DNA from: Heptranchias perlo
Lineage: Eukaryota
Direction: 5' to 3'
DNA: 64,000 nucleotides
Assembly: GCF_035084215.1 (NCBI RefSeq)
Contig: NC_090332.1
Coordinates: 45,880,001-45,944,000 of the forward strand
Made by a program: the position numbers and the translations under genes. Numbering within the stretch: position 1 is the stretch's first letter; every line of letters starts with the position of its first letter. This document shows, piece by piece, positions 3,064-62,290 of this stretch. The notes beneath the pieces are model-generated. The model saw nothing but the letters and a program-made list of their open reading frames with translations, searched no databases and was not told the DNA's origin.

Positions 3064-3744
3064 GTAAGTCTTCAGTACATACTGTGTAATAGACTGGAAG
3101 CGAATTATCCCCTTGGACTGCTATGGCTCCCTGTGTAGCTCCAGGCTCCATGTACGTAGGGTTTGTGGGTTGAGTGAAGCGCCTCACCGACCTCTATCTC
3201 TGCTAAAAACGATTGGCACGTTTGTCTATTGAAAAGTATCATCGTCTTTAGAACTGAATTGCATTTCAAAGTAATATTTTGCCTTTTTCCAATTGGAGTA
3301 TGGTAATTGTTATTTGAGCTGTTTATCGGTAGCTTGTAACGAAAGTGAACCTGTTCTACAACTGTTTAGGATACGTCTTCAGAATTATTCAAAATACTGA
3401 CAAGTTATTCTACTGTATTTCATTTTAAAGTAGTTTGTTTTCCAAAGTAAATACACTAAACGACTCTCTAGAGTAAAAGTAATAAACATTAAATATTCCG
3501 GAAAGAAAATAATTGACAGGCCTAGTATAAAATGTGTTCAGATATGAGCTAACCAGACAGTGTCACAGCTTGTTATGCACCAACAAATTTTGGGCCACAT
3601 ACATTTATACCTGCAGTTAAACTGTGATTTCCTGTTGTCAGTTGTACTTTGGATAGATCCCTTTACAATCATTACTCAAGCTTGGTCATCCTTTTGATGA
3701 GGGTGCAATTTGTGACGTGTAGGATTTTTTTTAAAGATGAGTCG

Positions 3745-4406: not shown

Positions 4407-7352
4407 TTTTTATTTATTTTTGTTCCTGGAATGTTGGTGATGCTGGCAAAGCTGGATTTATTGCCCTTCCCTACTTGACCTGAGAAGGTGGTGGTGAGCC
4501 GCCTTGAACCGCTGCAGTCCATGTGGTGAAGGTTCTCCCACAGTGCTGTTAGGAAGGGAGTTCCAGAATTTTGACCCAGCGACGATGAAGGAACTGCGAT
4601 ATATTTCCAAGTCAGGGTGATTTGTGACTTGGAGGGAAACATGCAGGCGGTGTTCCCGTGCACCTGCTGCCCTTGTCCTTCTAGGTGGTAGAGGTCACTA
4701 TGGTACACACTGCAGCCACGGTGCGCCAGTGGTAGAGGGAGTGAATGTTTAAGGTGGTGGATGGGCTGCCGATCAAGCGGGCTGCTTTGAACTGGATGAT
4801 TTTGAGCTTCTTGAGTGTTGTTGGAGCTGCACTCATCCGGGTAAGTGGAGAGTATTCCATCACACTCCTGAATTATGCCTTGTAGATGGTGGAAAGGCTT
4901 TGGGGAGTCAGGAGGTGAGTTACTTGCCGCAGAATACTCAGCCTCTGACCTGCTTTTGTAGCCACAGTATTTATGTGGCTGGTCCAGTTAAGTTTCTGGT
5001 CAATGGTGACCCCCAGGATGTTGATGGTGGGGGATTCGGCGATGGTAATGCCGTTGAATGTCAAGGGGAGGTGCTTAGACTCTCTCTTGTTGGAGATGGT
5101 CATTGCCTGGCACTTGTCTGGCGCGAATGTTACTTGCCACTTATCAGCCCAAGCCTGGATGTTGTCCTGGTCTTGTTGCATGTGGGCATGGACTGCTTCA
5201 TTATCTGAGGGGTTGCGAGTGGAACTGTACACTGTGGAATCATCAGCAAACATCGCCACTTCTGACCTTATGATGGAGGGAAGGTCATTGATGAAGCAGC
5301 TGAAGATGGTTGGGCCTAGCTCACTGCCCTGAGGAACTCCTGCAGCGATGTTCTGGGGCTGAGATGATTGGCCTCCAACTACCACTACCATCTTGTGCTA
5401 GGTATGACTCCAACCACTGGAGAGTTTTCCCCCTGATTCCCATTGACTTCAATTTTACTAGAGCTCCTTGGTGCCACACTCAGTCAAATGCTGCCTTGAT
5501 GTCAAGGGCAGTCACTCTCACCTCACCTCTGGAATTCAGCTCTTTTGTCCATGTTTGGACCGAGGCTGTAATGAGGTCTGGAGCCGAGTGGTCCTGGCGG
5601 AACCCAAACTGAGCATCGGTGAGCAGGTTATTGGTGAGTAAGTGCCGCTTGATAGCACTGTTGACGATACCTTCCATCTCTTTGCTGATGATTGAGAGTA
5701 GACTGATGGGGTGGTAATTGGCTGGATTGGATTTGTCCTGCTTTTTGTGGACAGTATATACCTGGGCAATTTTCCACATTGTCGGGTAGATGCCAGTGTT
5801 GTAGCTGTACTGGAACAGCTTGGCTCGAGGGGCAGCTAGTTCTGGAGCACAAGCCTTCAGCACGACAGCTGGGATGTCGTCGGGGCCCATAGCCTTTACT
5901 GTATCCAGTGCACTCAGCAGTTTCTTAATATCACGTGGAGTGAATCAAATTGGCTGAAGACTGGCTTCTGTGATGGTGGGGAACTCGAGAAGAGGCCAAG
6001 ATGGATCATCCACTCGGCACTTCTGGCTGAAGATGGTTGCAAACGCTTCAGCCTTGTCTTTTGCACTCACGTGCTGGACTCCGCCATCATTGAGGATGGG
6101 GATGATCACGGAGCCTCCTCCTCCCGTTAGTTGTTTAATTGTCCATCACCATTCACGACTGGATGTGGCAGGACTGCAGAGCTTTGATCTGATCTGTTGG
6201 TTGTGGAATCGCTTAGCTCTGTCTATAGCATGCTGCATCTGCTGTTTAGCATGCATGTTGTCCTGAGTTGTAGTTTCACCAGGTTGGCACCTCATTTTTA
6301 GGTACGCTTGGTGCTACTCCTGGCATGCTCTTCTACACTCCTCATTGAACCAGGGTTGATCCCCTGGCTTGTTGGTAATGGTAGAGTGAGGAATATGCTG
6401 GGCCATGAGGTTACAGATTGTGCTGGAATACAACTCTGCTGCTGCTAATGGCTCACAGCGCCTCATGGATGCCCAGTTTTGAGCTGCTAGATCTGTTCTG
6501 AATCTATCCCATTTAGCACAGTGGTAGTGCTACACAACACAATAGATGGTGTCCTCAGTGCGAAGACGAGACATCGTCTCCACAAGGACTGTGCGGTGGT
6601 CACTTCAATCAATACTGTCATGGACAGATGCATCTTCGAAAGGTAGATTGGTGAGGACAAGGTCAAGTCGGTTTTTCCCTCGTCTTGGTTCTCTCACCAC
6701 CTGCCGCACACCCAGTCTGGCAGCTATATCCTTTGGGACCTGGCCAACTTGGTCAGTATTGGTGTTACCGAGCCACTCTTGGTGATGGACATTGAAGTCC
6801 CCCACCCAGAGTACATTCTGTGCCCTTGCTACCCTCAGTGCTTCTTCCAAGTTGTGTTCAACATGGAGGAGTACTGATTCATCAGTTGAGGGAGGGCGGT
6901 AGGTGGTAATCAGCAGGAGGTTTCTTTGCCCATGTTTGACCTGATGCCATGAGATTTCATGGGGTCCGGAGTCAATGTTTAGGACTTCCAGGGCCACTCC
7001 CTCCTGACTGTATACCACTGTACTGCCACCGATGAAGCAGCTGAAGATAGTTTGGCTGAGGACATTTCCCTGATCAAATCCTGCAGTGATGTCCTGGGGT
7101 TGTGATGACTGACCTCCGACTACCACAACCATCTTCCTTTGTGTCAAGTGTGACTCCAACCATTGGAGGGTTTTCTTTTTGACCTCCATTGACTTCAGTT
7201 TTGCTAGAGTTCCTTGGTCCAATCTCAGTTGGATGCTGCCTTGATGTCGAGGGCTAACCTCGCCTCTGCTCTGGCTTACAGCTCTTGTATCGATGTCTGG
7301 ATTAAGGTTGTGATGAGGTCTGGAGCTGAGTGGTTCTGGCAGAACTCGAACT
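4407..7352 (-). mobile_element. Degenerate non-LTR retrotransposon (APE + RT), 5'-truncated; same family as 21693-25515
   Basis: EN motifs TYRPP and VGDFNVHH; RT motifs DIKAAFD, GVPQGS.LGP and FADD; frameshifted. 7031-7352 is a second, more diverged RT piece. Confidence 0.92.
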
Positions 7353-8619
7353 GTAGTGAAACTTCAGTATTCGCTCATTTCATATTCCTGCATCACTGAA
7401 GTGTGGATATTTAAGTTGTGACACTGCCCATCCTTTAACAATCATTTATATGAAAGAAAATTAAAGTTCTATCAAATTTTGACAAAACTTTACAAAGCAC
7501 CTGCAGTCTAATGTAAGTCTCATTTAATTTTTTCTTTAAAAAATTGTTAACCCTTTATCTTTCAGGCATCTAATCACAAACAATTGTATTGTTAATAATG
7601 AAAAATTTGGTAATAGTACGTAGTATAGTTGTTTATTATTTTGTTGTTCCTTCAAATCGAAATCTCTAGGCACAATACTTCAGTACTTGATTTTACAGTG
7701 TTTTTATAGAAACTGATATAATGCAATAATTCTACTCTAATCAAATGTAAGAAGATCCAAAACTACAGAAGACAGTTGTTAATAGAATAAATATTCACAT
7801 ATTTGGCTATATCACTGCTTCTCACATGCTTACTTTTCTGTAACAAAAGCAAGAGAGATACTACAAAAACAGAAAATATTTTTCAAACCTCAGAAAATAT
7901 CATTAAACCCTTTGTGATCCTCATAGCTATCAGTTTAAATTTGTGCAGAGTAAAAAGGCCATCCATCAGCTTGAATTTACTCAACGTGCAGTAGCCTGGT
8001 ATTTGCACGCCCTTAATGAAAGTCACTAAATCCAAAGGTTATGTTTACAGGAGAAGATAAAAAGAAAGAAATGTAATCCTGCAGGCTGTCTGTTAACAGT
8101 ATAGTACATGGTCTACTAGTCTGTAAGATATTGCTTGTAAAGATACAACTACAAAGAAGAAAACCAAGACAAATCATTTGTAACCCTAGACTTGTTTCGC
8201 GTTCAGATTCATCCGTGATGACAAAATCATATGGTAAAAAACTTTTCACAAGTGTTTATAGTTTTGAAATATCATGACTGAGGCTTTTTCTGCAGGGTCA
8301 CATTACAAAAACTGATTAAAGAAGGCCCACAAGATTTAATTTTGCAAAGTTGATCTGACCTGATTTACTAGTTGTAAACAAAACATGATCCAGATTTTTA
8401 ACTTTTTTTAATAATAATATTGTTCTAGCAAGACATATATTTTGTTAAGGCTCATGCAAGAACTATTAATGCTATTATCTTCATGAAAAGAAAATTCCTT
8501 GGCAAAGCTTTTCTCATTGTTTATAAGCAAACAGTGCTGTGGCATAAATTTCATAATGTGCATTACAGTAGCTAAATGTGATATAATTACAAAAATGACA
8601 CATGGCTCTCTCTCCAAAC

Positions 8620-12184: not shown

Positions 12185-12700
12185 AGATATTGACACTTTA
12201 GATAGGGTGCAGAAAAGAGCAACATCAATGATACCTAAATTTAGAACTGTTAGTTATGAGGCTTAGAAAAGGTCAATTTCTTTGAAGAGTCGTAGGAGAT
12301 ATCTTAGAGGTTTACAAAATTATGAAACGACTAGATGTAGTGGATTTGGTTAAGATATTTGAAGTAGATGATAATTTTGCAACTAAAAGGTATGCCTATA
12401 AGTTACATATGATGTGGAGCATATGATAAGCCTCCGAAAGCTTGTGAATTTAAAATAAAATTGCTGGACTATAACTTGGTGTTGTAAAATTGTTTACAAT
12501 TATAAGTTACATAGGCAAAGAGTCAGGATAGATGGCGGGAAGTATTTCTCCTCTCAGGGTATCAGCCTCAAATACATTAATGGCAATTGTGGTAAGAATG
12601 GGTACGTTTTAAGAATGAACTTGACCAATTCCTGAGTGAGGACGATATTGCTGTATATCCGAGGGAGGGGTGAGATAAGCTTACCAAGTGATCTGATGTT
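12185..12700 (+). mobile_element. Old CR1 3' fragment with a small Penelope-tail insert at about 12428-12500
   Basis: Degenerate RVQKRA..MIP/RGD...YKIM sequence. The insert AAGCCTCCGAAAGCTTGTG... matches 22365-22440. Confidence 0.6.
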
Positions 12701-17612: not shown

Positions 17613-17833
17613 GAAAGAGAAAGAAAGAACTTGCATTTACATAACAGCTGATTACACCCTCAGGCCATCTCAAACAATTTTACAGCTAATGAATTATTTT
17701 GAAGTGTAATCACTTATTATGTAGGCAACACAGCAGCCAATTTGTGCACAACAAGATCACACACCAAATGAGATAATGATCAGTTAATTTTTCTTTGGTG
17801 GTTGTGTCTGAGGAAGGAATGTTGGCCAGGACA
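17613..17833 (-). mobile_element. DeuSINE/SacSINE1-like SINE, 3' half (5' half at 21432-21600)
   Basis: Reverse complement of the 54640-55075 copy, split by the CR1 insertion. Confidence 0.75.
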
Positions 17834-20800
17834 GTAGCATTTCTGCGGCCACAACCGAGACTCCAGGATGGTGTGTTGCCTCCCTGGTGCAAGGATCAAG
17901 GACGTCTCGGAGCAGCTACAGAACATTTTGGAGGGGGAGGGCGAACAGCCAGCTGTCGTGGTGCACATAGGCACCAACGATATAGGTAAAAAAGGGGATG
18001 AGGTCCTAAAAGCAGAATATAGGGAGTTAGGAGGTAAATTAAGAAATAGGACCTCAAAGGTAGTAATCTCAGGATTGCTGCCAGTGCCACGTGCTAGTCA
18101 GAGTAGAAATAGGAGGATATTTCAAATGAATACGTGGCTCGAGGAATGGTGCAAGGGGGAGGGATTCAAATTCCTGGGACACTGGAAACGGTTCTGAGGG
18201 AGGTAGGACCAGTACAAACCGGACGGTCTGCACCTGGGCAGGGCCGGGACCGCTGTCCTAGGAGGAGTGTTTGCTAGTGCTGTTGGGGAGGGTTTAAACT
18301 AAAGTGGCAGGGGGTTGGGAACCTGAGCAGGGAGACAGAGGAAAGCGTAACAGGAAGGGACAGAAGGTATGGAGTAATAGGTAAAGTGTTAAAAAAGGAA
18401 AAAGCAGGAACTAAGCGTCACAAAACAGATTTGAAAGTTCTTTATCTGAATGCACGTAGCATTCGTAACAAAATGGACAAGTTAACGGCACAAATAACTA
18501 CATATGGGTATGATCTTGTGGCCATTACAGAAACATGGCTGCAGGGTGACAACGACTGGGAATTAAATATACCAGGGTATTTAACAATCAGGAAGGACAG
18601 GCAGGAAGGAAGGGGAGGTGGGGTGGCTATGTTAATAAAGGAAGGAATCACTGTAATACAGATAAATGATATTGGGACAAAGCATCAAGATAATGAAACA
18701 GTTTGGGTAGAGATAAGGAATAATAAGGGGAAAAAAACACTAGTGGGCATAGTATATAGGCCTCCTAATAGTTGCAACTCTGCTGGAAGAAGTATTAATC
18801 AGGAAATAGTCGGGGCAAGTAATAAGGGAACAGCTATAATTATGGGGGATTTTAACTATCATATTAACTGGACAAATCAAATTGGGCAAAGCAGCCTTGA
18901 GGAAGAGTTCATTGAGTGCATCAGGGAAGGATTTCTTGAGCAGTATGTAACTGATCCTACAAGGGGGCAGGCAACCTTGGACCTGGTCCTGTGTAATGAG
19001 TCAGGATTAATTAATAATGTCCTAGTTAAGGATCCCCTTGGAATGAGCGACCACAACATGGTTGAATTCCATATCCAATTAGAGGGTGAGAAGGTTGATT
19101 CTCAAACAAGCGTACTGAGCTTGAATAAAGGAGACTATGATGGTATGAGAGCGGAATTGATTAAAGTGGACTGGGAAAATAGATTAAAGGGTAAGACGGT
19201 ACATGAGCAGTGGTGTTCATTTAGGGAGTTATTTTACAACTTTCAAAATAAATATATTCCACTGAGGAAAAAAGGGTGTAAAAGAAATGACAGCCATCCG
19301 TGGCTAAGTAAAGAAATCAAGGATAGTATCCAACTAAAAACAAGGACATATAAGGTAGCCAAACTTAGTGGGAGGATAGAAGATTGGGAAGTCTTCAAAA
19401 GACAGCAAAAAGTAACTAAAGGATTGATTAAGAAAGGGAAGTTAGATTATGAAAAGAAATTAGCAAAAAATATAAAAACAGATAGCAAGAGTTTCTATAG
19501 TTATATAAAAAGAAAACGGGTGGCTAAGGCAAACGTCGGTCCCTTAGAGGATGAGACCGGGAAATTAATGGTGGGAAACATGGAGATGGCAAAAATGCTG
19601 AACAAATATTTTGTTTCAGTCTTTACGGTAGAGGATACTAAGAATATCCCAACACTGGACAAACAGGGGACTCTAGAGGGGGAGGAGCTAAATACGATTA
19701 AAATCACTCAGGAGATGGTACTCAGTAAAATAATGGGACTCAAAGCAGATAAATCCCCTGGACCTGATGGCTTACATCCTAGGGTCTTGAGGGAAGTGGC
19801 AGTAGGGATTGTGGATGCTTTGGTGATAGTTTTCCAAAATTCCCTGGACTCAGGAGAGGTCCCGGCAGATTGGAAAACTGCTAATGTAACACCGTTATTT
19901 GAAAAGGGTAGTAGGCAGAAGGCTGGAAATTATAGGCCAGTTAGCCTAACATCCGTGGTGGGTAAAATTTTGGAGTCTAATATTAAGGAGACAGTAACGG
20001 AACATTTAGATAAGCATAATTTAATAGGACAAAGTCAGCATGGCTTTATGAAGGGGAAGTCATGTCTGACAAATTTGCTTGAGTTCTTTGAGGATATAAC
20101 GTACAGGGTGGATAAAGGGGAACCAGTGGACGTAGTGTATTTAGACTTCCAGAAGGCATTTGACAAGGTGCCACATAAAAGATTAATACTTAAGATAAAA
20201 AATCACGGGATTGGGGGTAATATTCTGGCATGGGTGGAGGATTGGTTATCGAACAGGAAGCAGAGAGTTGGGATAAATGGTTCATTCTCGGACTGGCAAC
20301 CAGTAACCAGTGGTGTTCCACAGGGATCGGTGCTGGGTCCCCAACTCTTTACAATCTATATTAACGATTTGGAGGAGGGGACCGAGTGCAACATATCAAA
20401 ATTTGCAGATGATACAAAGATGGAAGGGAAAGTAGAGAGTGAGGAGGACATAAAAAACCTGCAAGGGGATATAGACAGGCTGGGTGAGTGGGCGGAGATT
20501 TGGCAGATGCAATATAATATTGGAAAATGTGAGGTTATGCATTTTGGCAGGAAAAATAAGAGAGCAAGTTATTTTCTTAATGGCGAGAGACTGGAAAGTA
20601 CTGCAGTACAAAGGGATCTGGGGGTCCTAGTGCAAGAAAATCAAAAAGTTAGTATGCAGGTGCAGCAGGTGATCAAGAAAGCCAACGGAATGTTGGCTTT
20701 TATTGCTAGGGGGATAGAATATAAAAACAGGGAGGTATTGCTGCAGTTATATAAGGTATTGGTGAGACCGCACCTGGAATACTGCATCCAGTTTTGGTGT

Positions 20801-21432
20801 CCACACTTAAGAAAAGACATACTTGCTCTCGAGGCAGTACAAAGAAGGTTCACTCGGCTAATCCCGGGGATGAGGGGGTGGACATATGAGGAGAGGTTGA
20901 GTAGATTGGAACTCTACTCATTGGAGTTCAGAAGAATGAGAGGCGATCTTATTGAAACATAAGATTGTGAAGGGGCTTGATCGGGTGGATGCAGTAAGGA
21001 TGTTCCCAAAGATGGGTGAAACTAGAACTAGGGGGCATAATCTTAGAATAAGGGGCTGCTCTTTCAAAACTGAGATGAGGAGAAACTTCTTCACTCAGAG
21101 GGTGGTAGGTCTGTGGAATTTGCTGCCCCAGGAAGCTGTGGAAGCTACATCATTAGATAAATTTAAAACAGAAATAGACAGTTTTCTAGAAGTAAAGGGA
21201 ATTAGGGGTTATGGGGAGCGGGCAGGAAATTGGACATGAAGCTGAGTTCGGATCGGTCAATCCCCTGTTGTGGCGGAGAGGGCCCAGGGGCTGAGTGGCT
21301 GGGTCCTGCTCCTACTTCTTGTGTTCTTTAGATTTGTGGTTGGGATCAGATCAGCCATGATCTTATTGAATGGCAGAGCAGGCTCGAGGGGCCGATTGGC
21401 CTACTCCTGCTCCTATTTCTTATGTTCTTATG
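17834..21432 (+). mobile_element. Young 5'-truncated CR1 LINE: ORF1 esterase remnant and near-intact ORF2
   Basis: SGNH esterase motif VVVHIGTND (17868-18197). 858-aa APE-RT ORF 18386-20962 (YLNARS, ETW, GDFN, SDH, LDFQKAFD, GVPQGS, FADD). One frameshift near 20960. TTCTTATG tail. Confidence 0.97.
18386..20962 (+). CDS. CR1 ORF2 endonuclease/reverse transcriptase (C-terminus continues frameshifted to 21239)
   Basis: ORF track with all APE and RT motifs present. Confidence 0.85.
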   Translation: MLKKEKAGTKRHKTDLKVLYLNARSIRNKMDKLTAQITTYGYDLVAITETWLQGDNDWELNIPGYLTIRKDRQEGRGGGVAMLIKEGITVIQINDIGTKHQDNETVWVEIRNNKGKKTLVGIVYRPPNSCNSAGRSINQEIVGASNKGTAIIMGDFNYHINWTNQIGQSSLEEEFIECIREGFLEQYVTDPTRGQATLDLVLCNESGLINNVLVKDPLGMSDHNMVEFHIQLEGEKVDSQTSVLSLNKGDYDGMRAELIKVDWENRLKGKTVHEQWCSFRELFYNFQNKYIPLRKKGCKRNDSHPWLSKEIKDSIQLKTRTYKVAKLSGRIEDWEVFKRQQKVTKGLIKKGKLDYEKKLAKNIKTDSKSFYSYIKRKRVAKANVGPLEDETGKLMVGNMEMAKMLNKYFVSVFTVEDTKNIPTLDKQGTLEGEELNTIKITQEMVLSKIMGLKADKSPGPDGLHPRVLREVAVGIVDALVIVFQNSLDSGEVPADWKTANVTPLFEKGSRQKAGNYRPVSLTSVVGKILESNIKETVTEHLDKHNLIGQSQHGFMKGKSCLTNLLEFFEDITYRVDKGEPVDVVYLDFQKAFDKVPHKRLILKIKNHGIGGNILAWVEDWLSNRKQRVGINGSFSDWQPVTSGVPQGSVLGPQLFTIYINDLEEGTECNISKFADDTKMEGKVESEEDIKNLQGDIDRLGEWAEIWQMQYNIGKCEVMHFGRKNKRASYFLNGERLESTAVQRDLGVLVQENQKVSMQVQQVIKKANGMLAFIARGIEYKNREVLLQLYKVLVRPHLEYCIQFWCPHLRKDILALEAVQRRFTRLIPGMRGWTYEERLSRLELYSLEFRRMRGDLIET

Positions 21433-21877
21433 GGATCCTTTACACCCACCTGAACAGGCAGGCAGGGCCTTGGTTTAAGTCTTATCCACTTCCGCAATGC
21501 AGCTCTCCCTCAGTACTGCACTGAAGTGTCAGCTTAGTGGGCTTGAAACCACAATCTTCTAATTCAGAGGTGAGAGAGCTTACCAATGAACCAAACTGAC
21601 ATCCCAATACAGGAATTTAATATTCCTTCCTCCATAATGGACTGCATGTGGGTTTAATGGTACAATCTTCAAATAAAGAACCTCAATTTGTCTTTTTTAA
21701 AATTCGTTCCTGGGATGTGGGCGTTGCTGGTGAGGCCCATCCCTAATTGCCATTGAGAAGGTGGTGGTGAGCCGCCACCTTGAACTGCTGCAGTCCGTGG
21801 TGAAGGTTCTCCCACAGTGCTGTTCGGTAGGGAGTTCCAGGATTTTGACCCAGCGACGATGAAGGAACGGCGATATA

Positions 21878-22474
21878 ACGGCGCAACAATAGCCAGACAG
21901 GAGGGTTCTCTCCCAGTCGGGGAACACTTCAGCAGTCAAGGACATTCAGCCACCGATCCTCGGGTAAGCGTTCTCCAAGGCGGCCTTCGAGACACACGAC
22001 AACGCAAAATCGTCGAGCAGAAATTGATAGCCAAGTTCCGCACCCATGAGGACGGCCTCAACCGGGATCTTGGGTTCATGTCACGCTACACGTAACCCCA
22101 CCAGCAGGGAAAAAGAGTTATCTATTTTTAATACAACTGGTCATTCTCTCTCTCTTCCTTTCGGCTGTTTCTCTCTCTCTCTCTGTCTTTGGGTCCTGAC
22201 CGTTTGTATATTCAGTAGTCCTGTATGTAATTTCTCTCTGTCTGAACACTTTGATTGCCTTGACAACGGGCAGTTGGAAAGATTATCTGTAATCACCAGG
22301 TATTGTTCTCTGACTATATATGCGGTAACCTTCATGGAATCCCACACTCACCTGACGAAGGAGAAAGCCTCCGAAAGCTTGTGATTTTCAAATAAAACTG
22401 TTGGACTATTACCTGATGTTGTAAGATTCCTTACATTTATCCACCCCAGTCCATCACTGTCATCTCCTCATCAT
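21878..22474 (+). mobile_element. Penelope-like element 3' fragment (GIY-YIG C-terminus and pseudo-LTR) nested in the LINE
   Basis: PVGEHFSSQGHS...RKIVEQKLIAKFRTHEDGLN. Flanked by a GATATA duplication at 21872-21877 and 22475-22480. Confidence 0.85.
22348..22384 (+). ncRNA. Minimal type I hammerhead ribozyme
   Basis: TCAC-CTGACGA-A-GGAG(AAAGC)CTCC-GAAA-GC-TT-GTGA: core boxes, stem II, stem I TCAC/GTGA and palindromic AAGCTT at stem III, as in Penelope-associated hammerheads. Confidence 0.8.
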
Positions 22475-25400
22475 GATATATTTCCAAGTCAGGATGGTGT
22501 ATGACTTGGAGGGGAACGTGCAGGTGGTGTTGTTCCCATGTGCCTGCTGCCCTTGTCCTTTTAGGTGGTAGAGGTCGTGGGTTTGGGAGGTGCAGTCGAA
22601 GAAGCCTTGGCGAGTTGTTGCAGTGCATCCTGTGGATGGTGCACACTGCAGCTACAGTGCGCTGGTGGTGAAGGGAGTGAATGTTTAGGGTGGTGGATGG
22701 GCTGCCAATCAAGCGGGCTGCTTTTTCCTGGATGGTGTCGAGCTTTTTGAGTGTTGTTGGAGCTGCACTCATCCAGGCAAGTGGAGAGTATTCCATCACA
22801 CTCCTGAATTGTGCCTTGTAGATGGTGGAAAGGCTTTGGGGAGTCAGGAGGTGAGTCACTTGCCTCAGAATACCCAGCCTCTGACCTGCTCTTGTAGCCA
22901 CAGTTAAGTTTCTGGTCAATGGTGACCCCCCCCCAGGATGTTGATGGTGGGGAATTCGGCGATGGTAATGCCGTTGAATGTCAAGGGGAGGTGGGTAGAC
23001 CCTCTCTTGTTAGAGATGGTCATTGCCTGGTGCTAATGTTACTTGCCACTTATCAACCAAGCCTGGATGTTGTCCAGGTCTTGCTGCATGCGGGCACGGA
23101 CTGCTTCATTGACTGAGGGGTTGTGAATGGAACTGAACATTGTGCAATCATCAGTGAACATCCCCAATTCTGACCTTATGATGGAGGGAAGGTCATTGAT
23201 GAAGCAGCTGAAGATGGTTGGGCCTTGGACACTGCCCTGAGGAACTCCTGCAGCAATGTCCTGGGGCTGAGATGATTGGCCTCCAACAACCACTACCATC
23301 CTCCTTTGTGCTCGGTATGACTCCAGCCACTGGAGAGTTTTCCCCCTGATTCCCATTGACTTCAATTTTACTAGGGCTCCTTGGTGCCACATTCGGTCAA
23401 ATGCTGCCTTGATGTCAAGGGCAGTCACTCTCACCTCAGCTCTGGAATTCAGCTCTTTTGTCCATGTCTGGACCAAGGCTGTAATGAGGTCTGGAGCTGA
23501 TTGGTCCTGGCGGAACCCAAACTGAGCATCAGCGATTCGGTTATTGGTGAGTAAGTGCCGCTTGATAGCACTGTCGACAACACTTTCCATTACTTTGCTG
23601 ATGATTGAGAGTAGACTGATGGGGCGGTAATTGGCCAGATTGGATTTGTCCTTTTTGTGGACAGGACATACCTGGGCAATTTTCCATATTGTCGGGTAGA
23701 TGCCAGTGTTGTGGCTGTACTGGAACAGTTTGGCTAGAGGCGTGGCTAGTTCTGGAGCACAAGGCTTCAGCACTACAGCCGGATGTTGTCGGGGCTCATA
23801 GCCTTTGCTGTATCCAGTGCACTCAGCCGTTTCTTGATATCACGTGGAGTGAATCGAATTGGCTGAAGACTGGCTTCTGTGACGGTGTGGATATCGGGAG
23901 GAGGTCGAGACGGATCATCCACTCGGCACTTCTGGCTGAAGATGGTTGCAAACGCTTCAGCCTTGTCTTTTGCACTCACGTGCTGGACTCCGCCACCATT
24001 GAGGATGGGGATGTTTACAGAGCCGCCTCCTCCCGTTAATTGTCCACCAGCATTCACGACTGGATGTGGCAGGACTGCAGAGCTTTGATCTCATTCGTTG
24101 GTTGTGGAATCGCTTAGCTCTGTCTATAGCATGTTGCTTCTGCTGTTTAGCATGCATGTAGTCCTGAGTTGTAGCTTCACCAGGTTGGCACCTCATTTTT
24201 AGATGCACCTGGTGCTGGTCCTGGCATGCTCTTCTACACTCCTCATCGAACCAGGGTTGATCCCCTGGCTTGTTGGTAATGGTAAAGTGAGGAATGTGCC
24301 GGGCCAAGAGGTTACAGATTGTGCTGGATTACAATTCTGCTGCTGCTGATGGGCCACAGTGCTTCATGGATGCCCAGTTTTGAGCTGCTCGATCTGATCT
24401 GAATCTATCCTATTTAGCACAGTGATAGTGCCACACAACACGTTGGATGGTGTCCTTCGTGCGAAGACGGGACTTTGTCTCCACGAGCACTGTGCAGTGG
24501 TCACTCTTGCCAATACTGTCATGGACAGATGCATCTGCAACAGGTAGATTGGTGAGGACGAGGTCAAGTAGGTTTTTCCCTCATGTTGGTTCGCTCACCA
24601 CCTGCCGCAGGCTCAGTCTGGCAGCTATGTCCTTCAGGACTCGGCCAGCTTGGTTAGTAGTGGTGCTACTGAGCCACCCTTGGTGATGGACATTAAAGTC
24701 CCCCACCCAGACTACATTCTGTGCCCTTGCTACCCTCGATGCTTCCTCCAAGTGGTGCTCAACATGGAGGAGGACTGATTCATCAGCTGAGGGAGGACGG
24801 TAGGTGGTAATCAACAGGAGGTTTCCTTGCCCATGTTTGACCTGCTGCCATGTGATTTCATGGGGTCCTGAGTCAATGTTGAGGACTCCGAGGGCCACTC
24901 CCTCCTGACTGTATATCACTGCCGGCGGGACAGGACATACCCAGGAATGGTGATAGAAGATTCTGGGACGTTGGCTGAAAGGTATGATTCTGTGAGTATG
25001 GCTATATCAGGCTGTTGCTTGACTAGTCTGTGGGACAGTTCTCCCAATTTTGGCACAAGTCCCCAGATGTTGGTGAGGAGGACTTTGCAGGGTCGACCCG
25101 GCTTGGTTTGCCTTTGTCGTGTCCAGCGCCTTGTGGTCCGATACCGCTTGGTCCATCCGGTTTTATTCTTATGACTTTTTTTAGCGAGATTGTAATAGTG
25201 AGTGGCTTGCTAGGCCATTTCAGAGGGCAATTAAGAATCAACCACATTGCTGTGGGTCTGGAATCACATATAGGCCAGACCAGGTAAAGACGGCAGGTTT
25301 CCTTCCCTAAAGGACATCAGTGAACCAGATGGGTTTTTACGACATTCTGGTAGTTTCATGGCCACCATTGCTGATACTAGTTTTTTAAAATTTAATTCAT

Positions 25401-26072
25401 TGAATTTAAATTCCCCAGCTGCCGTGGCGGGATTTGAACTCATGACTCCGGATTATTAGTCTAGGCCTCTGGATTACTAGTCCAGTAACATAACCACCAT
25501 GTTACCATACCCGAGATCTTAGTAATTTCCTTTTCGTATTTTGCATAACAAATGACAATTGGATTGCATGTGACCTGTGTGTGTGTGTGGATTATAATTG
25601 TGGCAATGTCTAGCCAGATGGAAGGAATTACTTTTTAAATTTATGTCAAATGTTTTCCACAAATTGAATTCTTCATAATTTTGCCAGGATTCCTCTTTTA
25701 CAAAAGTATTTAATTCAAGCACTGTTTTAAAAGAAATACAACTGACAAATCTTTTGTCATCTTGAGAATAATGAGTCAATAAAAGATGTAGGAAGAAACA
25801 GAATTGAATGACAGTCCGATAGAAGAGGTGCCTCTGCTCCCCTGAAAGGTGATCAGTACTTTGCTCATTATTCGCTGGCAACGAGGGCTCTGTTATTGCA
25901 CATCCGCTGTATTTTCTACCTGCATGGGATGATACCAATAGTGATAACCATAGTCTGAATTACAGAATGCTTGTATTTTTTGTTGTCTTGAGCTACCATC
26001 CGTTTTCATGGCTGCTTATTGTGCATGTTAATTTGTAACATTAATATGTACTTTCCTCCATTTTCAAATAAG

Positions 26073-26198: not shown

Positions 26199-26734
26199 GT
26201 CAGTTGCTCAACTATATTTCCAAACCATCAAACCAATAGAGTAAAATATACAAATTATTAAATCTATATATTAGAATGCTGATAAAATTAAAACTCAGTG
26301 CAGCAAACACTGAGGTTTATTTTCTTCCATCCGCTAACGTTAGCAAAAATAGTTGGCATGAATATAAAGTGGGTTTTAGTGAATGGAAGAAAATTTACCA
26401 ATGGTATTGTTTAATAAGAATTGCACATTATTTTACCACAAGAATAATTCTGTCTACAAAATCAATAAAATGGGCTAAACACTTGTCAAGTTACTTTTAC
26501 AGACTGGGAGAATGAATCCCATCCGACTGCAATGCATGACTTTTGCTGAATATAAACTGGACTTGGAAACCAACCTTAGCAGCCAGTTTAAAACTAGAGA
26601 TAGAAATTGCCAGTTTATATTGAATGGTCAGCTTCTCCCACAAAGTAACTCTTCATCACAATAAATCTTCAAGGGATTGCCCAGCAGTCTAGCACTAAAC
26701 TCCCATTTATTGGAAGCGTTTCAAATCGGTTTGA

Positions 26735-26850
26735 ATGCAGCTGTTCAAGAAGGCGGCTCACCACCACCTTCTCAAGGGCAATTAGGGATGGGCAATAAAT
26801 GCTGGCCTTGCCAGCGACGCCCACATCCCATGAACGAATAAACAAAAAAA
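26735..26850 (+). mobile_element. Isolated 3' tail of the 4407/21693 LINE-SINE family
   Basis: GCTCACCACCACCTTCTCAAGGGCAATTAGGGATGGGC...GCCCACATCCC followed by an A-rich tail. Confidence 0.85.
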
Positions 26851-27297
26851 ATTATAGCCCCAACAGGCCTTCAAACCTGATTACTTTTGTGGCTAAGGGA
26901 GTAGTCATTGATTGTTTGCTGGATCAATAAGTGCAGCATTTGTCTCGATTAAAAATCTATAAAGTTATCTGACCTGTACTTCTCCTTTTGTAATAAGCAT
27001 AACATCCACAAGGGCAGTGCGGAAATACAATATGTGTTGTTTTTCCTCCCTTCCCTCGTAAAAGATAAATAACAAAAGAAGACAACTGGGACTAAATTTA
27101 CCGTTTTGAAGATTACTACTGGATGAAAAACAAACTAGTTTCAGAATTTTTTTTTCCCCTCTCAGAAGGCAATCACTCATATTGGGACATGGTTCCATAC
27201 GCACCAGCAACTGTGCAGGTGCATCACCTATGTGGCCATTTTTCATGTATGACTCTAAACAACAACTTGCATTTATATAGCGCCTTTTTCGTAATAA

Positions 27298-32551: not shown

Positions 32552-32940
32552 TTTTTTTTCTATTTGTTCTTGGGATGTGGGCGACTGGCAAGGCCGTTTT
32601 TATTGCCTATCTCTAGTGGCCCTGAGAAAGTGGTTATGGACATTGTTCTTGAACTGCTGCAGTCCTTGTAGTAATGGTGCTCCCTAAATTGTGCTAAGTA
32701 AGGAATTCCAGGATATTGACCCAGCACGATGAAGAAATGGCGATATATATCTATGTCACGGTGGTGTGTGACTTTGAGGGGAACTTGGATGTGAAGGTAC
32801 TTCTAAGACGTTGGTTCTTTTCTCCTTCTTAGTGGTAGAGGTCACGGGAGGGAATTGTAATGCGTCCTGTAGGTTGTACAAAATGCAGCCACAATATGCT
32901 GGTGATGGAGGGGGTGGATATTAAGCTGGTGACAGGAGTG
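32552..32940 (-). mobile_element. Old 3' fragment of the 4407/21693 LINE family
   Basis: Colinear similarity with 4410-4760. Confidence 0.8.
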
Positions 32941-35755: not shown

Positions 35756-36829
35756 CTAAAGAAAACCAGCAATCTGCATAATAACTTACAATTTAATGCA
35801 GTAGCAACTGTATGACTACCAAAACTTTTTTCACTGGTATGCAAAATATACAAATTACAAGCTTATAATTTTTTTTTGGTTACCAATTTTCTCTCCTCCT
35901 CCTCTCGAACGATATCGTTCGAGTGCCAGTCCCCCTCTGGCCATTGTTCATGTGTAAGCCTAAAAAGTGACTTCTGGTAGCCTATTCTGTAATTGGGACA
36001 GCACAGCTGATCCTTCTCCTGTCCTCACGTAACATCGGCTGTTTCCTGTGGGGTCACTGTATAGTGTCAGCCGTGCACTTTTTTCTCATTGTGCTATCTC
36101 TATAATTCTGTCTGACTTCTTTCATTGTTTCTGTCCCATTCTGTACTTTTCTCCAACCTTTGTCTCATATCTCTTTTGTATCTCAGCTCTCCGTGTGACT
36201 CTCACACATTCCTTCACTGATGTACTCTATATCTATCTCTTACCTTTTTTGAGGCTTAGTGTTCACAGAGAGATAGAAGACAGCATATACTGAGCTAAGA
36301 TGTGGAGATGCCGGTGATGGACTGGGGTGGACAAATGTAAGGAATCTTAAAGCTAAAGGTGAGGATAGGAAGACGCTGCTGGAAAAGTGCGATAACACGA
36401 ATGGTTCAGTGAGAAAATGGATCTAAGGCTCAGGCCAGGAGGAACTGGGGAAAAGGGTTGCAACCAAGTAGAAACAAAGGGTCAGGGTTGGAGTATGGGA
36501 GGAAGTAGGTGAAGAAGGTTACAGCTTAGAGGAGAGTGCGTGGAAGGCTGGACCCATAAGTAATGGGGTGTGGGACTACTATGGTTAGAGAACAATAGGA
36601 TTGTGGTCTGGGACGAGCGATGACTTTTGGGGTGGGTTGGCTCTGGCAGGGGACAGGGGCTGAGGCATAGCAGTACTTATAAGGTGGTGTGTGAGGCCTG
36701 GGACCATTTGGGTGGTGGGTCAGACTAGTACCTGGGTATACTGGAGAGGAGGGAAATGTATGGGAGCACTTGAGTCTGAAATCTAAGGTGGGGTGGCATG
36801 CATAGCAAAGGGTATCACAGAAAAATCTA

Positions 36830-61252: not shown

Positions 61253-61880
61253 GTGAGTGGTTTCCCTTTAGCCGCTGCTTTAAGTCACTTTGTCGCCGAG
61301 GTGAAGGGTAGAGTATCTCCTGGGCAAACACTGGCTGCACTGAACAAATAGTTTTGAGTGAATTAGGGTGTACAGTACAAGGTCCAATTCCACATTACAC
61401 CCACCGCTCTAAGCAAGGAGTCCCAGTAAAACCGCAGCAATCTAGACTTTTGGTTTCAATCCTATTGTCAGATTGTCGGCGCTCCTGTGAGGTCCCGCCA
61501 GTCGAGTCCCCAGTGTCTAGTTCTAGTCTACTGGTCGCAGCTCGGGTTAGTGTAAACATGACAACGGGAGCGTCTTATGCTTTCATCCCATATATTTGTA
61601 GAACTCCAAAATATATTTGTGTGAGTCATAGCTTGTGAATTTTTAAGACCACCTTAACAATGCATAATTATTGTTAAAAAACACGAGTTTAAAATGGGAT
61701 CAAAGTGTGCGTGTGGTCCTCGAATAAGGAAAAATACAGTTTCAGGTTTGAGAACAACACGAAAATCACCTGATCCCCTTTTTAACACTTGGCCCCGTTT
61801 ACAACAAAATTGCAATCTAATCTTCAAATGCATGGAAACTCTACTTATAATGTAGCATGAAAGTACACTGAAATATATTT

Positions 61881-62290
61881 TAATTCATTCTCGGGATGTG
61901 GGTGTTGCTGGCAAGGTGAAGGGCAGGGAGCCTCCTGGTCAATTATTGGCCGCACTGAACAAATAGTTTGAGTAGTGAGTAGTGGTTTGATACAGCCGAG
62001 TGGCTTACCAGGCCAAGTCAGAGGGCAATTAAGAGTCAACCACACTAGTGTGGGACTGGAGTAACGTATAAGCCAGACCGGGAAAGGACGGCAGGTTTCC
62101 TCTCCTAAAAGACATTAGTGAACCAGTTGGGTTTTTATGATGATCCGACAACTTCTTGGTCACTTTTACTGATGATTATTTCCAGATTTTTAAACTGAAT
62201 TCAACTTCTCAAACTGCCATGGTGGGATTTGAACTTGTGTTCTCCAGATTATTAGTGCAGGCCTCTGGATTACTACTAGTCCAGTGGTTA
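61881..62290 (-). mobile_element. tRNA-headed SINE sharing its 5' part and 3' tail with the LINE at 21693-25515
   Basis: B box at 62236-62225 and core CTGGTTCACTAATGTC...GGAAACCTGCCGTCC...GTGGTTGACTCTTAATTGCCCTCTGA, colinear with 25490-25200. Tail CCCACATCCC. Confidence 0.85.

Follow-up and report, generated by a model that had tools for sequence, protein, structure and literature searches.

A Zenon LINE with a tRNA-derived 5′ end in Heptranchias perlo and its likely transcription by RNA polymerase III

Long interspersed elements (LINEs) are usually viewed as RNA polymerase II (Pol II) units, and RNA polymerase III (Pol III) as a source of short non-coding RNA. A locus in the shark Heptranchias perlo raises the question of whether a coding LINE can have a tRNA-derived head with A and B boxes as its own 5′ end, and how its RNA would then be made, translated and related to short SINE-like elements (SINE, short interspersed element). 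The locus lies in a stretch of 64,000 nucleotides, hereafter the window (assembly GCF_035084215.1, NC_090332.1:45,880,001-45,944,000, forward strand; coordinates below are window-relative). A first-pass annotation had described here a tRNA-SINE head fused to a lone endonuclease-reverse transcriptase (EN-RT) frame, either an autonomous SINE-LINE chimera or the parent of a SINE family born by internal deletion. We read the element as a decayed copy of the elasmobranch Zenon LINE, 3.3 kb long with one open reading frame (ORF) and an A/B-box 5′ end, likely transcribed by Pol III, likely translated without cap or AUG, and with short relatives likely derived by repeated deletion. From the sequence comparisons below, we give this reading a probability of roughly 0.6.

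The tRNA-derived head as the 5′ end of the LINE

Using positions 25000-25300 as a query, we obtained 5,268 candidates in the genome, and the 40 that were scored all cover the query at 92-100%. The exact leader-ORF junction pattern gave 5,361 matches, a control pattern none. At 29 non-self junction loci the flanks differ; 8 of these copies start between head positions 3 and 15, and the other 21 are truncated within the leader, at positions 47-213. The junction is thus multi-copy with distinct flanks, as the first-pass annotation had anticipated for a true family, and starts at the head or inside the leader form the pattern of 5′ truncation of one transcript.

In tests independent of the head, copies were chosen by the reverse transcriptase (RT) alone or by the endonuclease alone. 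Among the 20 longest open frames out of 150 RT matches, 11 copies are full, with starts at positions 3-20, whereas truncation falls in the leader in 6 and beyond it in 3, so that 17 reach the leader, while the first 30 of 150 endonuclease matches (one being the query locus) all continue into it, 17 of them full and 13 cut within the leader. Full-length copies with a normal 5′ untranslated region (UTR) and ORF1, which had been named as evidence that would speak against such a family, were found in neither set, and the 49 upstream flanks have no common abutting sequence.

The 20 intact copies are 96-99% identical to one another and all end in A-tails. Their 973-codon frame matches Exo_endo_phos and RVT_1, a single APE-RT ORF without ORF1, and only about 350 nt lie upstream of it, namely the tRNA head and a 260-nt leader. 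[quoted passage not shown] With many open copies in the genome, the long element is not short, non-coding and non-autonomous like SINE2, a description that its short derivatives do fit. Target-site duplications did not rise over the cross-locus background in the 19 copies compared. It is virtually certain that the anatomy of tRNA head, leader and EN-RT frame is real and family-wide. By the copies compared, the tRNA head forms the normal 5′ end of the long element, an autonomous-type LINE, and what had been described as a SINE-like body today behaves as a conserved LINE leader. For annotation, some of the sequence masked as SINE in sharks and rays is the 5′ end of a LINE.

Relation to published Zenon elements

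Zenon was described in sharks and rays by Stuart et al. 2026 (PMC13343379) as lacking ORF1 and ending in a poly-A tail, the latter unique within the CR1 group. Motifs of the window element match six Zenon rows of that paper, as far as these are accessible. In the first 400 nt, compared by eye, the CarCar, HypSab, RhiTyp, ScyCan and SquAca rows begin with the same head and leader; in these five rows the A-boxes vary just at free positions and the B-box consensus is kept, the B-box of the stingray row being one base short as printed. Over the same length, the hagfish and coelacanth rows start differently and lack the head. On sequence, the window family is the published elasmobranch Zenon LINE, with which it shares head, leader, a length of about 3.3 kb, the absence of ORF1, the poly-A tail and the APE and RT domains, and the "CR1-Zenon like LINE" of a whale shark preprint (10.1101/443036, accessible part) is the same family. 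In contrast, the accessible main text of PMC13343379 does not contain the words "tRNA", "promoter" or "polymerase III", nor its accessible supplement "tRNA", and the missing AUG, the avoidance of T-runs and the short derivatives were not found in these parts.

The best protein relatives obtained with phmmer are 33-40% identical and mostly unnamed, one being from amphioxus. Viral contigs gave no relative, and 80 metagenome loci of relatives contained no tRNA gene and no match to the leader. A tRNA-headed or Pol III-driven Zenon was not found in the literature covered, which did not extend to Repbase, Dfam or subscription journals, and is not described in the accessible parts of PMC5499810, PMC11481361 and PMC3747384; a tRNA-like sequence is mentioned in passing for the LINE RTE-1_DAn and relatives in PMC5786205 (accessible part).

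The leader core had been likened to that of MetaSINEs. Compared by eye, it resembles neither the printed 66-bp Meta-domain consensus (PMC7245038, Fig. S4) nor the Deu alignment printed in the same source, and both candidates were rejected. The core also appears unlike the CORE and V domains of CORE-SINEs and V-SINEs. What is common to MetaSINEs and DeuSINEs (PMC4824008, PMC7245038, accessible parts) is the tRNA-derived head, that of MetaSINEs having been compared with tRNA-Thr; the Meta and Deu domains set them apart.

Transcription

Sense-strand TTTT is absent from 19 of the 20 intact copies, in which about 20 AAAA, 6 GGGG and 12 CCCC are present. The interrupted forms T3VT2 and T2VT3, weak terminators according to the accessible part of PMC3141230, are likewise absent from the sense strand. 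TTTT is depleted relative to shuffled bases (P = 0.011) and, under a null that holds protein and codon use and sets Phe at the general C/T bias, TTTT has P = 0.04 and TTT is found 5 times against 18.3 expected (P = 0.0003). A young canonical CR1 LINE of the same genome shows no depletion (3.3 TTTT per kb over 20 loci). As a further control, 35 of the 80 metagenome relatives, selected for long or close matches, have a median TTTT observed/expected ratio of 1.18, and their lowest TTT ratio is 0.64 versus 0.28 in the shark LINE. The first-pass annotation had cautioned that T-runs should stop Pol III; this caveat is reversed, because the intact copies lack sense-strand TTTT.

These features make transcription of the 3.3-kb LINE by Pol III likely. 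The A and B boxes would drive Pol III on the LINE, and the enzyme would cross 3.3 kb and terminate in the flank or already at the tail, as happens with SINEs; we propose that it can cross this distance because terminators are selected against. Among 59 3′ ends, AATAAA lies about 45 nt before the end, and the A-tail is preceded by a single T in 47 and by two to five T in 10. The AATAAA near the 3′ end and the T-run of variable length that a minority of the copies have ahead of the A-tail recall T+ SINEs such as the Can SINE (PMC9599045, accessible part); T+ SINEs are short non-coding RNAs, and the shark Zenon ends differ by their single T in 47 of 59.

Several observations weigh against transcription by Pol III. 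The absence of TTTT alone is weak under codon shuffling (P = 0.08), the bias at Phe does not reach significance on its own (P = 0.19), and the element is T-poor (20%) with a general bias for C-ending codons. One metagenome relative (L200:137-1625, 37% identical), whose 5′ end is off the contig, also lacks sense-strand TTTT in 1.5 kb. At least four T precede the A-tail in only 4 of the 59 3′ ends, the Rfam tRNA match on an intact copy reaches 18.7 bits, under the 29-bit cut-off, and ARAGORN calls a tRNA at 2 of 18 other loci. Fold prediction gives the leader a rod in which the head pairs with positions ~140-190 (z = -5.1), and the same rod is predicted for the short-element majority sequence; taken by itself, the leader core has no unusual stability (z = -0.8). 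Such a rod could shield the RNA from tRNA processing, and it also offers an RNA-level reason for conservation of the head.

A rival reading is a Pol II LINE whose tRNA head, captured once, is a fossil or has been repurposed and is kept for RNA structure or Pol II support, the poverty in T being a general composition bias. A head predicted to form a rod with the downstream leader rather than a cloverleaf implies that conservation could act on RNA, and T content and codon preference agree with this explanation, as do the description of LINEs as Pol II units (PMC5786205, accessible part) and the lepidopteran Zenon derivatives without a Pol III promoter (PMC6740152, accessible part). However, the A/B-box consensus is kept in the five published elasmobranch rows, the TTT depletion persists under the codon-use null while AAAA is not avoided, and a capped Pol II message would sit poorly both with the four A(A/T)TAAA signals that lie within the first 380 nt and with the nine leader AUGs. 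We therefore regard a Pol II LINE as unlikely, although of all the alternatives it survives best. Whether a natural Pol III transcript can act as mRNA becomes directly testable with the clonable intact copies of this recently active, high-copy LINE, which has A/B boxes, is without a start codon and carries no terminators along its 3.3 kb.

Translation

In intact copies the 973-codon frame opens right after a TAA, and its first Met lies near codon 249, past the endonuclease; none of the nine AUGs in the majority leader opens the EN-RT frame. In 80 of 101 copies the linker that precedes the endonuclease has a length that preserves the frame, the common lengths being 87, 90, 99, 102, 105 and 108 nt, and the linker is therefore probably translated. 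If Pol III transcription holds, non-AUG, cap-independent translation would follow, the uncapped RNA being translated via its structured leader.

A candidate for this step is a bulged hairpin at the end of the leader. The UAGC of its 7-nt loop is complementary to an in-frame GCUA past a variable spacer. Across the accessible published rows neither hairpin nor GCUA changes, whereas the length of spacer that separates them does; four of the five species rows have GCT in frame, and four further organisms have no change listed in hairpin or GCUA except at loop position 2. One-base spacer deletions seen in the latter may be artefacts of alignment and were left out of account. The loop might pair with GCUA as a mimic of tRNA and codon, like pseudoknot I (PKI) of the dicistrovirus intergenic region (IGR) internal ribosome entry site (IRES). 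With the latter, as far as PMC4132737 is accessible, the shark leader shares the bulged stem, the anticodon-like loop, the variable single-stranded spacer, the in-frame complementary codon and the lack of an AUG. The shark hairpin differs in having 3-4 possible pairs, no covariation and no Rfam match, and the likeness is one of resemblance, not of membership. IGR-IRES-like initiation has been raised as a possibility for non-LTR elements (PMC3894237), and this LINE would make it directly testable.

The pairing of loop and GCUA comprises just 3-4 bp and is invariant, so that there is no covariation, whereas at least four pairs are required in Israeli acute paralysis virus (IAPV; PMC4132737, accessible part). 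Loop position 2 varies in 19 of 101 copies, Rfam IRES families gave no match to the leader at E up to 10, and the dogfish consensus as printed, in its accessible part, is one base out of frame after GCT. All these points count against a tRNA mimic. With regard to a ribosome-binding domain like PKII/PKIII of the IGR IRES, the leader core showed one compensated pair between young and old types. A search of the genome itself with an old-type long copy (L107) returned almost exclusively copies of 90-98% identity, and within-genome covariation is consequently low in power. On this analysis we hold the tRNA-mimic step to be the most likely route through the leader, yet a tentative lead that falls short of even odds.

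Alternatively, the protein might start at an AUG within the hairpin that lies in frame and in good Kozak context, and read through UAG-CAA and, in young copies, a second stop; such read-through would need no tRNA mimic and would suit any polymerase. UAG-CAA is a leaky stop context. About 99 of 101 copies have the AUG, which lies in frame at majority position 324, and both stop positions are polymorphic (5 of 101 copies have neither stop and 34 have one). The second stop is also missing in several of the published rows, as far as accessible. Nevertheless, both stops are kept in 62 of the 101 copies and the youngest intact copies retain UAA-A; moreover, in the accessible whale-shark row the spacer is one base shorter, possibly by a consensus error, which leaves the AUG out of frame and GCT in frame. 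Read-through thus appears rather unlikely, and a start at the GCU codon remains our preferred, if tentative, route.

Two further candidates were rejected. A -1 frameshift at an A7 run, from an overlapping 75-codon upstream frame, fails because the young subfamily is without the A7 run, and a near-cognate ACG start is not conserved, being AAA or ACA in other copies and species. At majority positions 295-522 (window ~25247-25025) a 75-codon AUG-started frame, in another frame than EN-RT, overlaps the end of the leader and the start of the endonuclease; it shows no sign of a role.

Origin of the short elements

The short element of the window had been described, at 61881-62290, as the same head and body joined to the same tail as the long copy. 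The two are indeed related, their head and body matching at 77-78%, but the first ~25 nt including the A-box are missing from the short element, only ~40 nt of tail are common, and a foreign piece of ~60 nt stands between body and tail. This piece (61914-61973) matches window positions 61299-61359, 600 bp away, at 82% identity and may be an insertion templated locally. The short element carries the old-type letter at 27 of 37 diagnostic sites; it is of an old type and hence not a product of the long copy's own subfamily.

Of 30 loci found with the window short element, 26 continue from the leader into a piece of tail, and one is the old-type long copy L107. The tails begin at 19 apparent start points (majority positions 3197-3293), and the short elements are on average 88% identical to the majority sequence of their own kind, compared with 80% for the young LINE. 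The leader-to-tail pattern has 145 exact matches in the genome. Among 100 junctions listed, the youngest LINE subfamily's spacer is present in 24, which by eye take at least a dozen forms, and others have a middle or old spacer; one young form recurs 6 times on different contigs, again by eye. Because the short elements carry letters of successive LINE subfamilies at many breakpoints, deletion products appear to have been born repeatedly. Thus, from the sequences, the short SINE-like elements likely arise repeatedly by internal deletion, and some then amplify. In this way a LINE that carries the head would give rise to SINEs simply by losing internal sequence, and subfamily markers would allow the births to be dated. 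In one region (G000:C9:5660224-7999793), 14 identical short-element junctions lie within 2.3 Mb, probably in a large repeated gene or segment array.

As to how the ORF is skipped, leader positions 309-319 and ORF-end positions 3261-3271 of the majority form an 11-bp complement (P ~0.004 versus shuffles; 6-9 bp in 18 other windows), which the short-element breakpoints flank within ~70 nt. Pairing of leader end and ORF end would bring both RNA ends together, and we propose that reverse transcription could then skip the ORF and give a ready-made SINE with promoter and tail. Against this, a 12-bp complement is also present elsewhere in the ORF, which makes the 11-bp pairing one picked after the fact. 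Long copies L003, L028, L023 and L020 have large internal deletions elsewhere (e.g. 539 to 2828, 582 to 2317), and skipping thus also takes place outside the region of this pairing.

Two published systems come close. Persaeus of the lepidopteran Zenon (PMC6740152, accessible part) is likewise a short element made of LINE 5′ and 3′ ends and born several times, but it has no tRNA head or Pol III promoter, whereas the shark product would be a tRNA-headed SINE at once and its births recur in one genome. The tRNA-derived SINEs of Kojima 2018 (PMC5786205, accessible part) combine a tRNA head with LINE 5′ and 3′ parts; there the head was joined to an already deleted LINE, the bipartite cases being RTE or Vingi, while here the coding CR1-group parent itself has the head. 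The definition of short internally deleted elements (SIDE), that they contain only the 5′ and 3′ ends of their partner LINE, fits the short family, the window copy having the foreign piece in addition.

Conversely, the short elements might descend from one ancient SINE or one founding deletion, the LINE having taken its head from a SINE and the present variety being due to later trimming. The head must once have come from a tRNA or tRNA-SINE, LINE leaders of other species are similar to the old short type, and one tail start is common to 5 of 26 old short copies. This explanation is already contradicted for the young short copies, and the junctions carry young, middle and old LINE spacers with differing lengths of ORF start, an old-type long copy exists (L107) and other organisms have other main junctions. 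An ancient SINE is accordingly improbable, and repeated deletion from the LINE remains the favoured origin. The two initial alternatives, autonomous chimera and SINE by internal deletion, prove to be parts of one answer, in which capture of a free SINE by a LINE would be an extra assumption. Chance adjacency of a SINE and a 5′-truncated LINE at the window locus, for which nothing speaks except the high density of both repeat kinds, is refuted by the exact junctions in the genome, by the endonuclease-picked copies, every one of which reaches the leader, and by the same head in five published consensus rows.

Taken in its strongest form, the argument describes, in a vertebrate genome, thousands of copies of an autonomous LINE with a 3.3-kb coding Pol III RNA, no cap and no AUG, a tRNA-mimicking pseudoknot like those of RNA viruses and clasped ends, a factory for SINEs in which the order usual for their birth is turned around. 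If true, each LINE generation would yield new ready-made SINEs; judged from sequence as a whole, we consider this conjunction doubtful.

Features and decay of the window copy

The features of the window are collected in Table 1. The A and B boxes expected at the minus-strand start were found, and ARAGORN calls a tRNA-Thr at 25420-25511, the first 92 nt of the element. As the first-pass annotation had noted, neither tail nor A-tract nor ORF1 intervenes between leader and APE domain: the endonuclease start at 25086 is reached directly, the endonuclease frame starting ~330 nt into the element with no space for ORF1. The described order of head, leader, APE and RT also stands, but not as one intact frame.

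Table 1. Repeat features of the 64,000-nt window and parts of the tRNA-headed LINE
Feature	Position	Strand	Remark
Decayed full-length tRNA-headed Zenon (CR1-group) LINE	21693..25513	-	intact family ~3,335 nt; leader matches published Zenon consensus rows
tRNA-derived head	25420..25513	-	ARAGORN; family 5′ ends cluster here
A-box	25494..25504	-	2 changes from family form in window copy
B-box	25430..25441	-	motif
Leader segment, AT-rich, variable length	25345..25419	-	3′ part predicted to pair with head as long rod; 29 nt deleted in window copy
Leader core ("SINE-like body")	25186..25344	-	conserved; neither Meta nor Deu domain (by eye)
11-nt stretch complementary to last ORF codons and stop	25223..25233	-	possible 5′-3′ pairing
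Bulged hairpin, 7-nt anticodon-like loop, AGC at anticodon position	25199..25223	-	contains in-frame AUG, then GCC and UAG
Conserved GCT codon, complementary to hairpin loop, in frame with EN-RT	25183..25185	-	candidate frame-setting site
Basic N-terminal linker without AUG	25087..25182	-	common length variants are multiples of three
APE endonuclease coding region	24480..25086	-	Pfam; frameshifted in window copy
RT core	23081..23659	-	Pfam RVT_1
597-bp later insertion	21878..22474	+	missing from second window copy and intact copies
Final ORF codons and stop	21743..21877	-	3′ arm of possible 5′-3′ pairing at 21743-21754
Short 3′ UTR and A-tail	21693..21742	-	TTTT just before A-tail in window copy
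Old-type short internal-deletion derivative	61878..62290	-	A-box missing from head; then leader, foreign piece of ~60 nt and tail of ~40 nt
Second copy of same LINE, 5′-truncated	4407..7020	-	89% identical; no insert, no TTTT
Young canonical CR1 LINE (T-run control)	17780..21239	+	esterase ORF1 fragment (Lipase_GDSL_2), 894-codon open ORF2; many 987-codon genome copies

The window copy still matches RVT_1 (E 2e-28) and Exo_endo_phos_2 (E 1e-8), and it is 94.5% identical to the intact majority, from which it differs by 12 deletions, several of them frameshifting. The end of its ORF is split by a 597-bp insertion that is absent from the copy at 4407-7020 and from all 20 intact copies. The sole internal TTTT of the copy is located at its 29-nt deletion. 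The window copy is thus dead and not one open frame. The missing start codon, the insert and the identity with published elasmobranch Zenon go beyond what had been annotated.

We take the insert to be probably a 3′ fragment of a Penelope-like element, its plus-strand frame resembling the end of a Penelope-type GIY-YIG protein; this frame has no Pfam match. Part of the insert also matches window positions 12428-12503 and 36299-36349. The truncated copy (4407-7020) is bordered at its 5′ end by an RT fragment of an older relative (7031-7353, 79% identical) with like orientation, and tail-only pieces of the same or an older Zenon family lie at 26733-26853 and 32552-32925.

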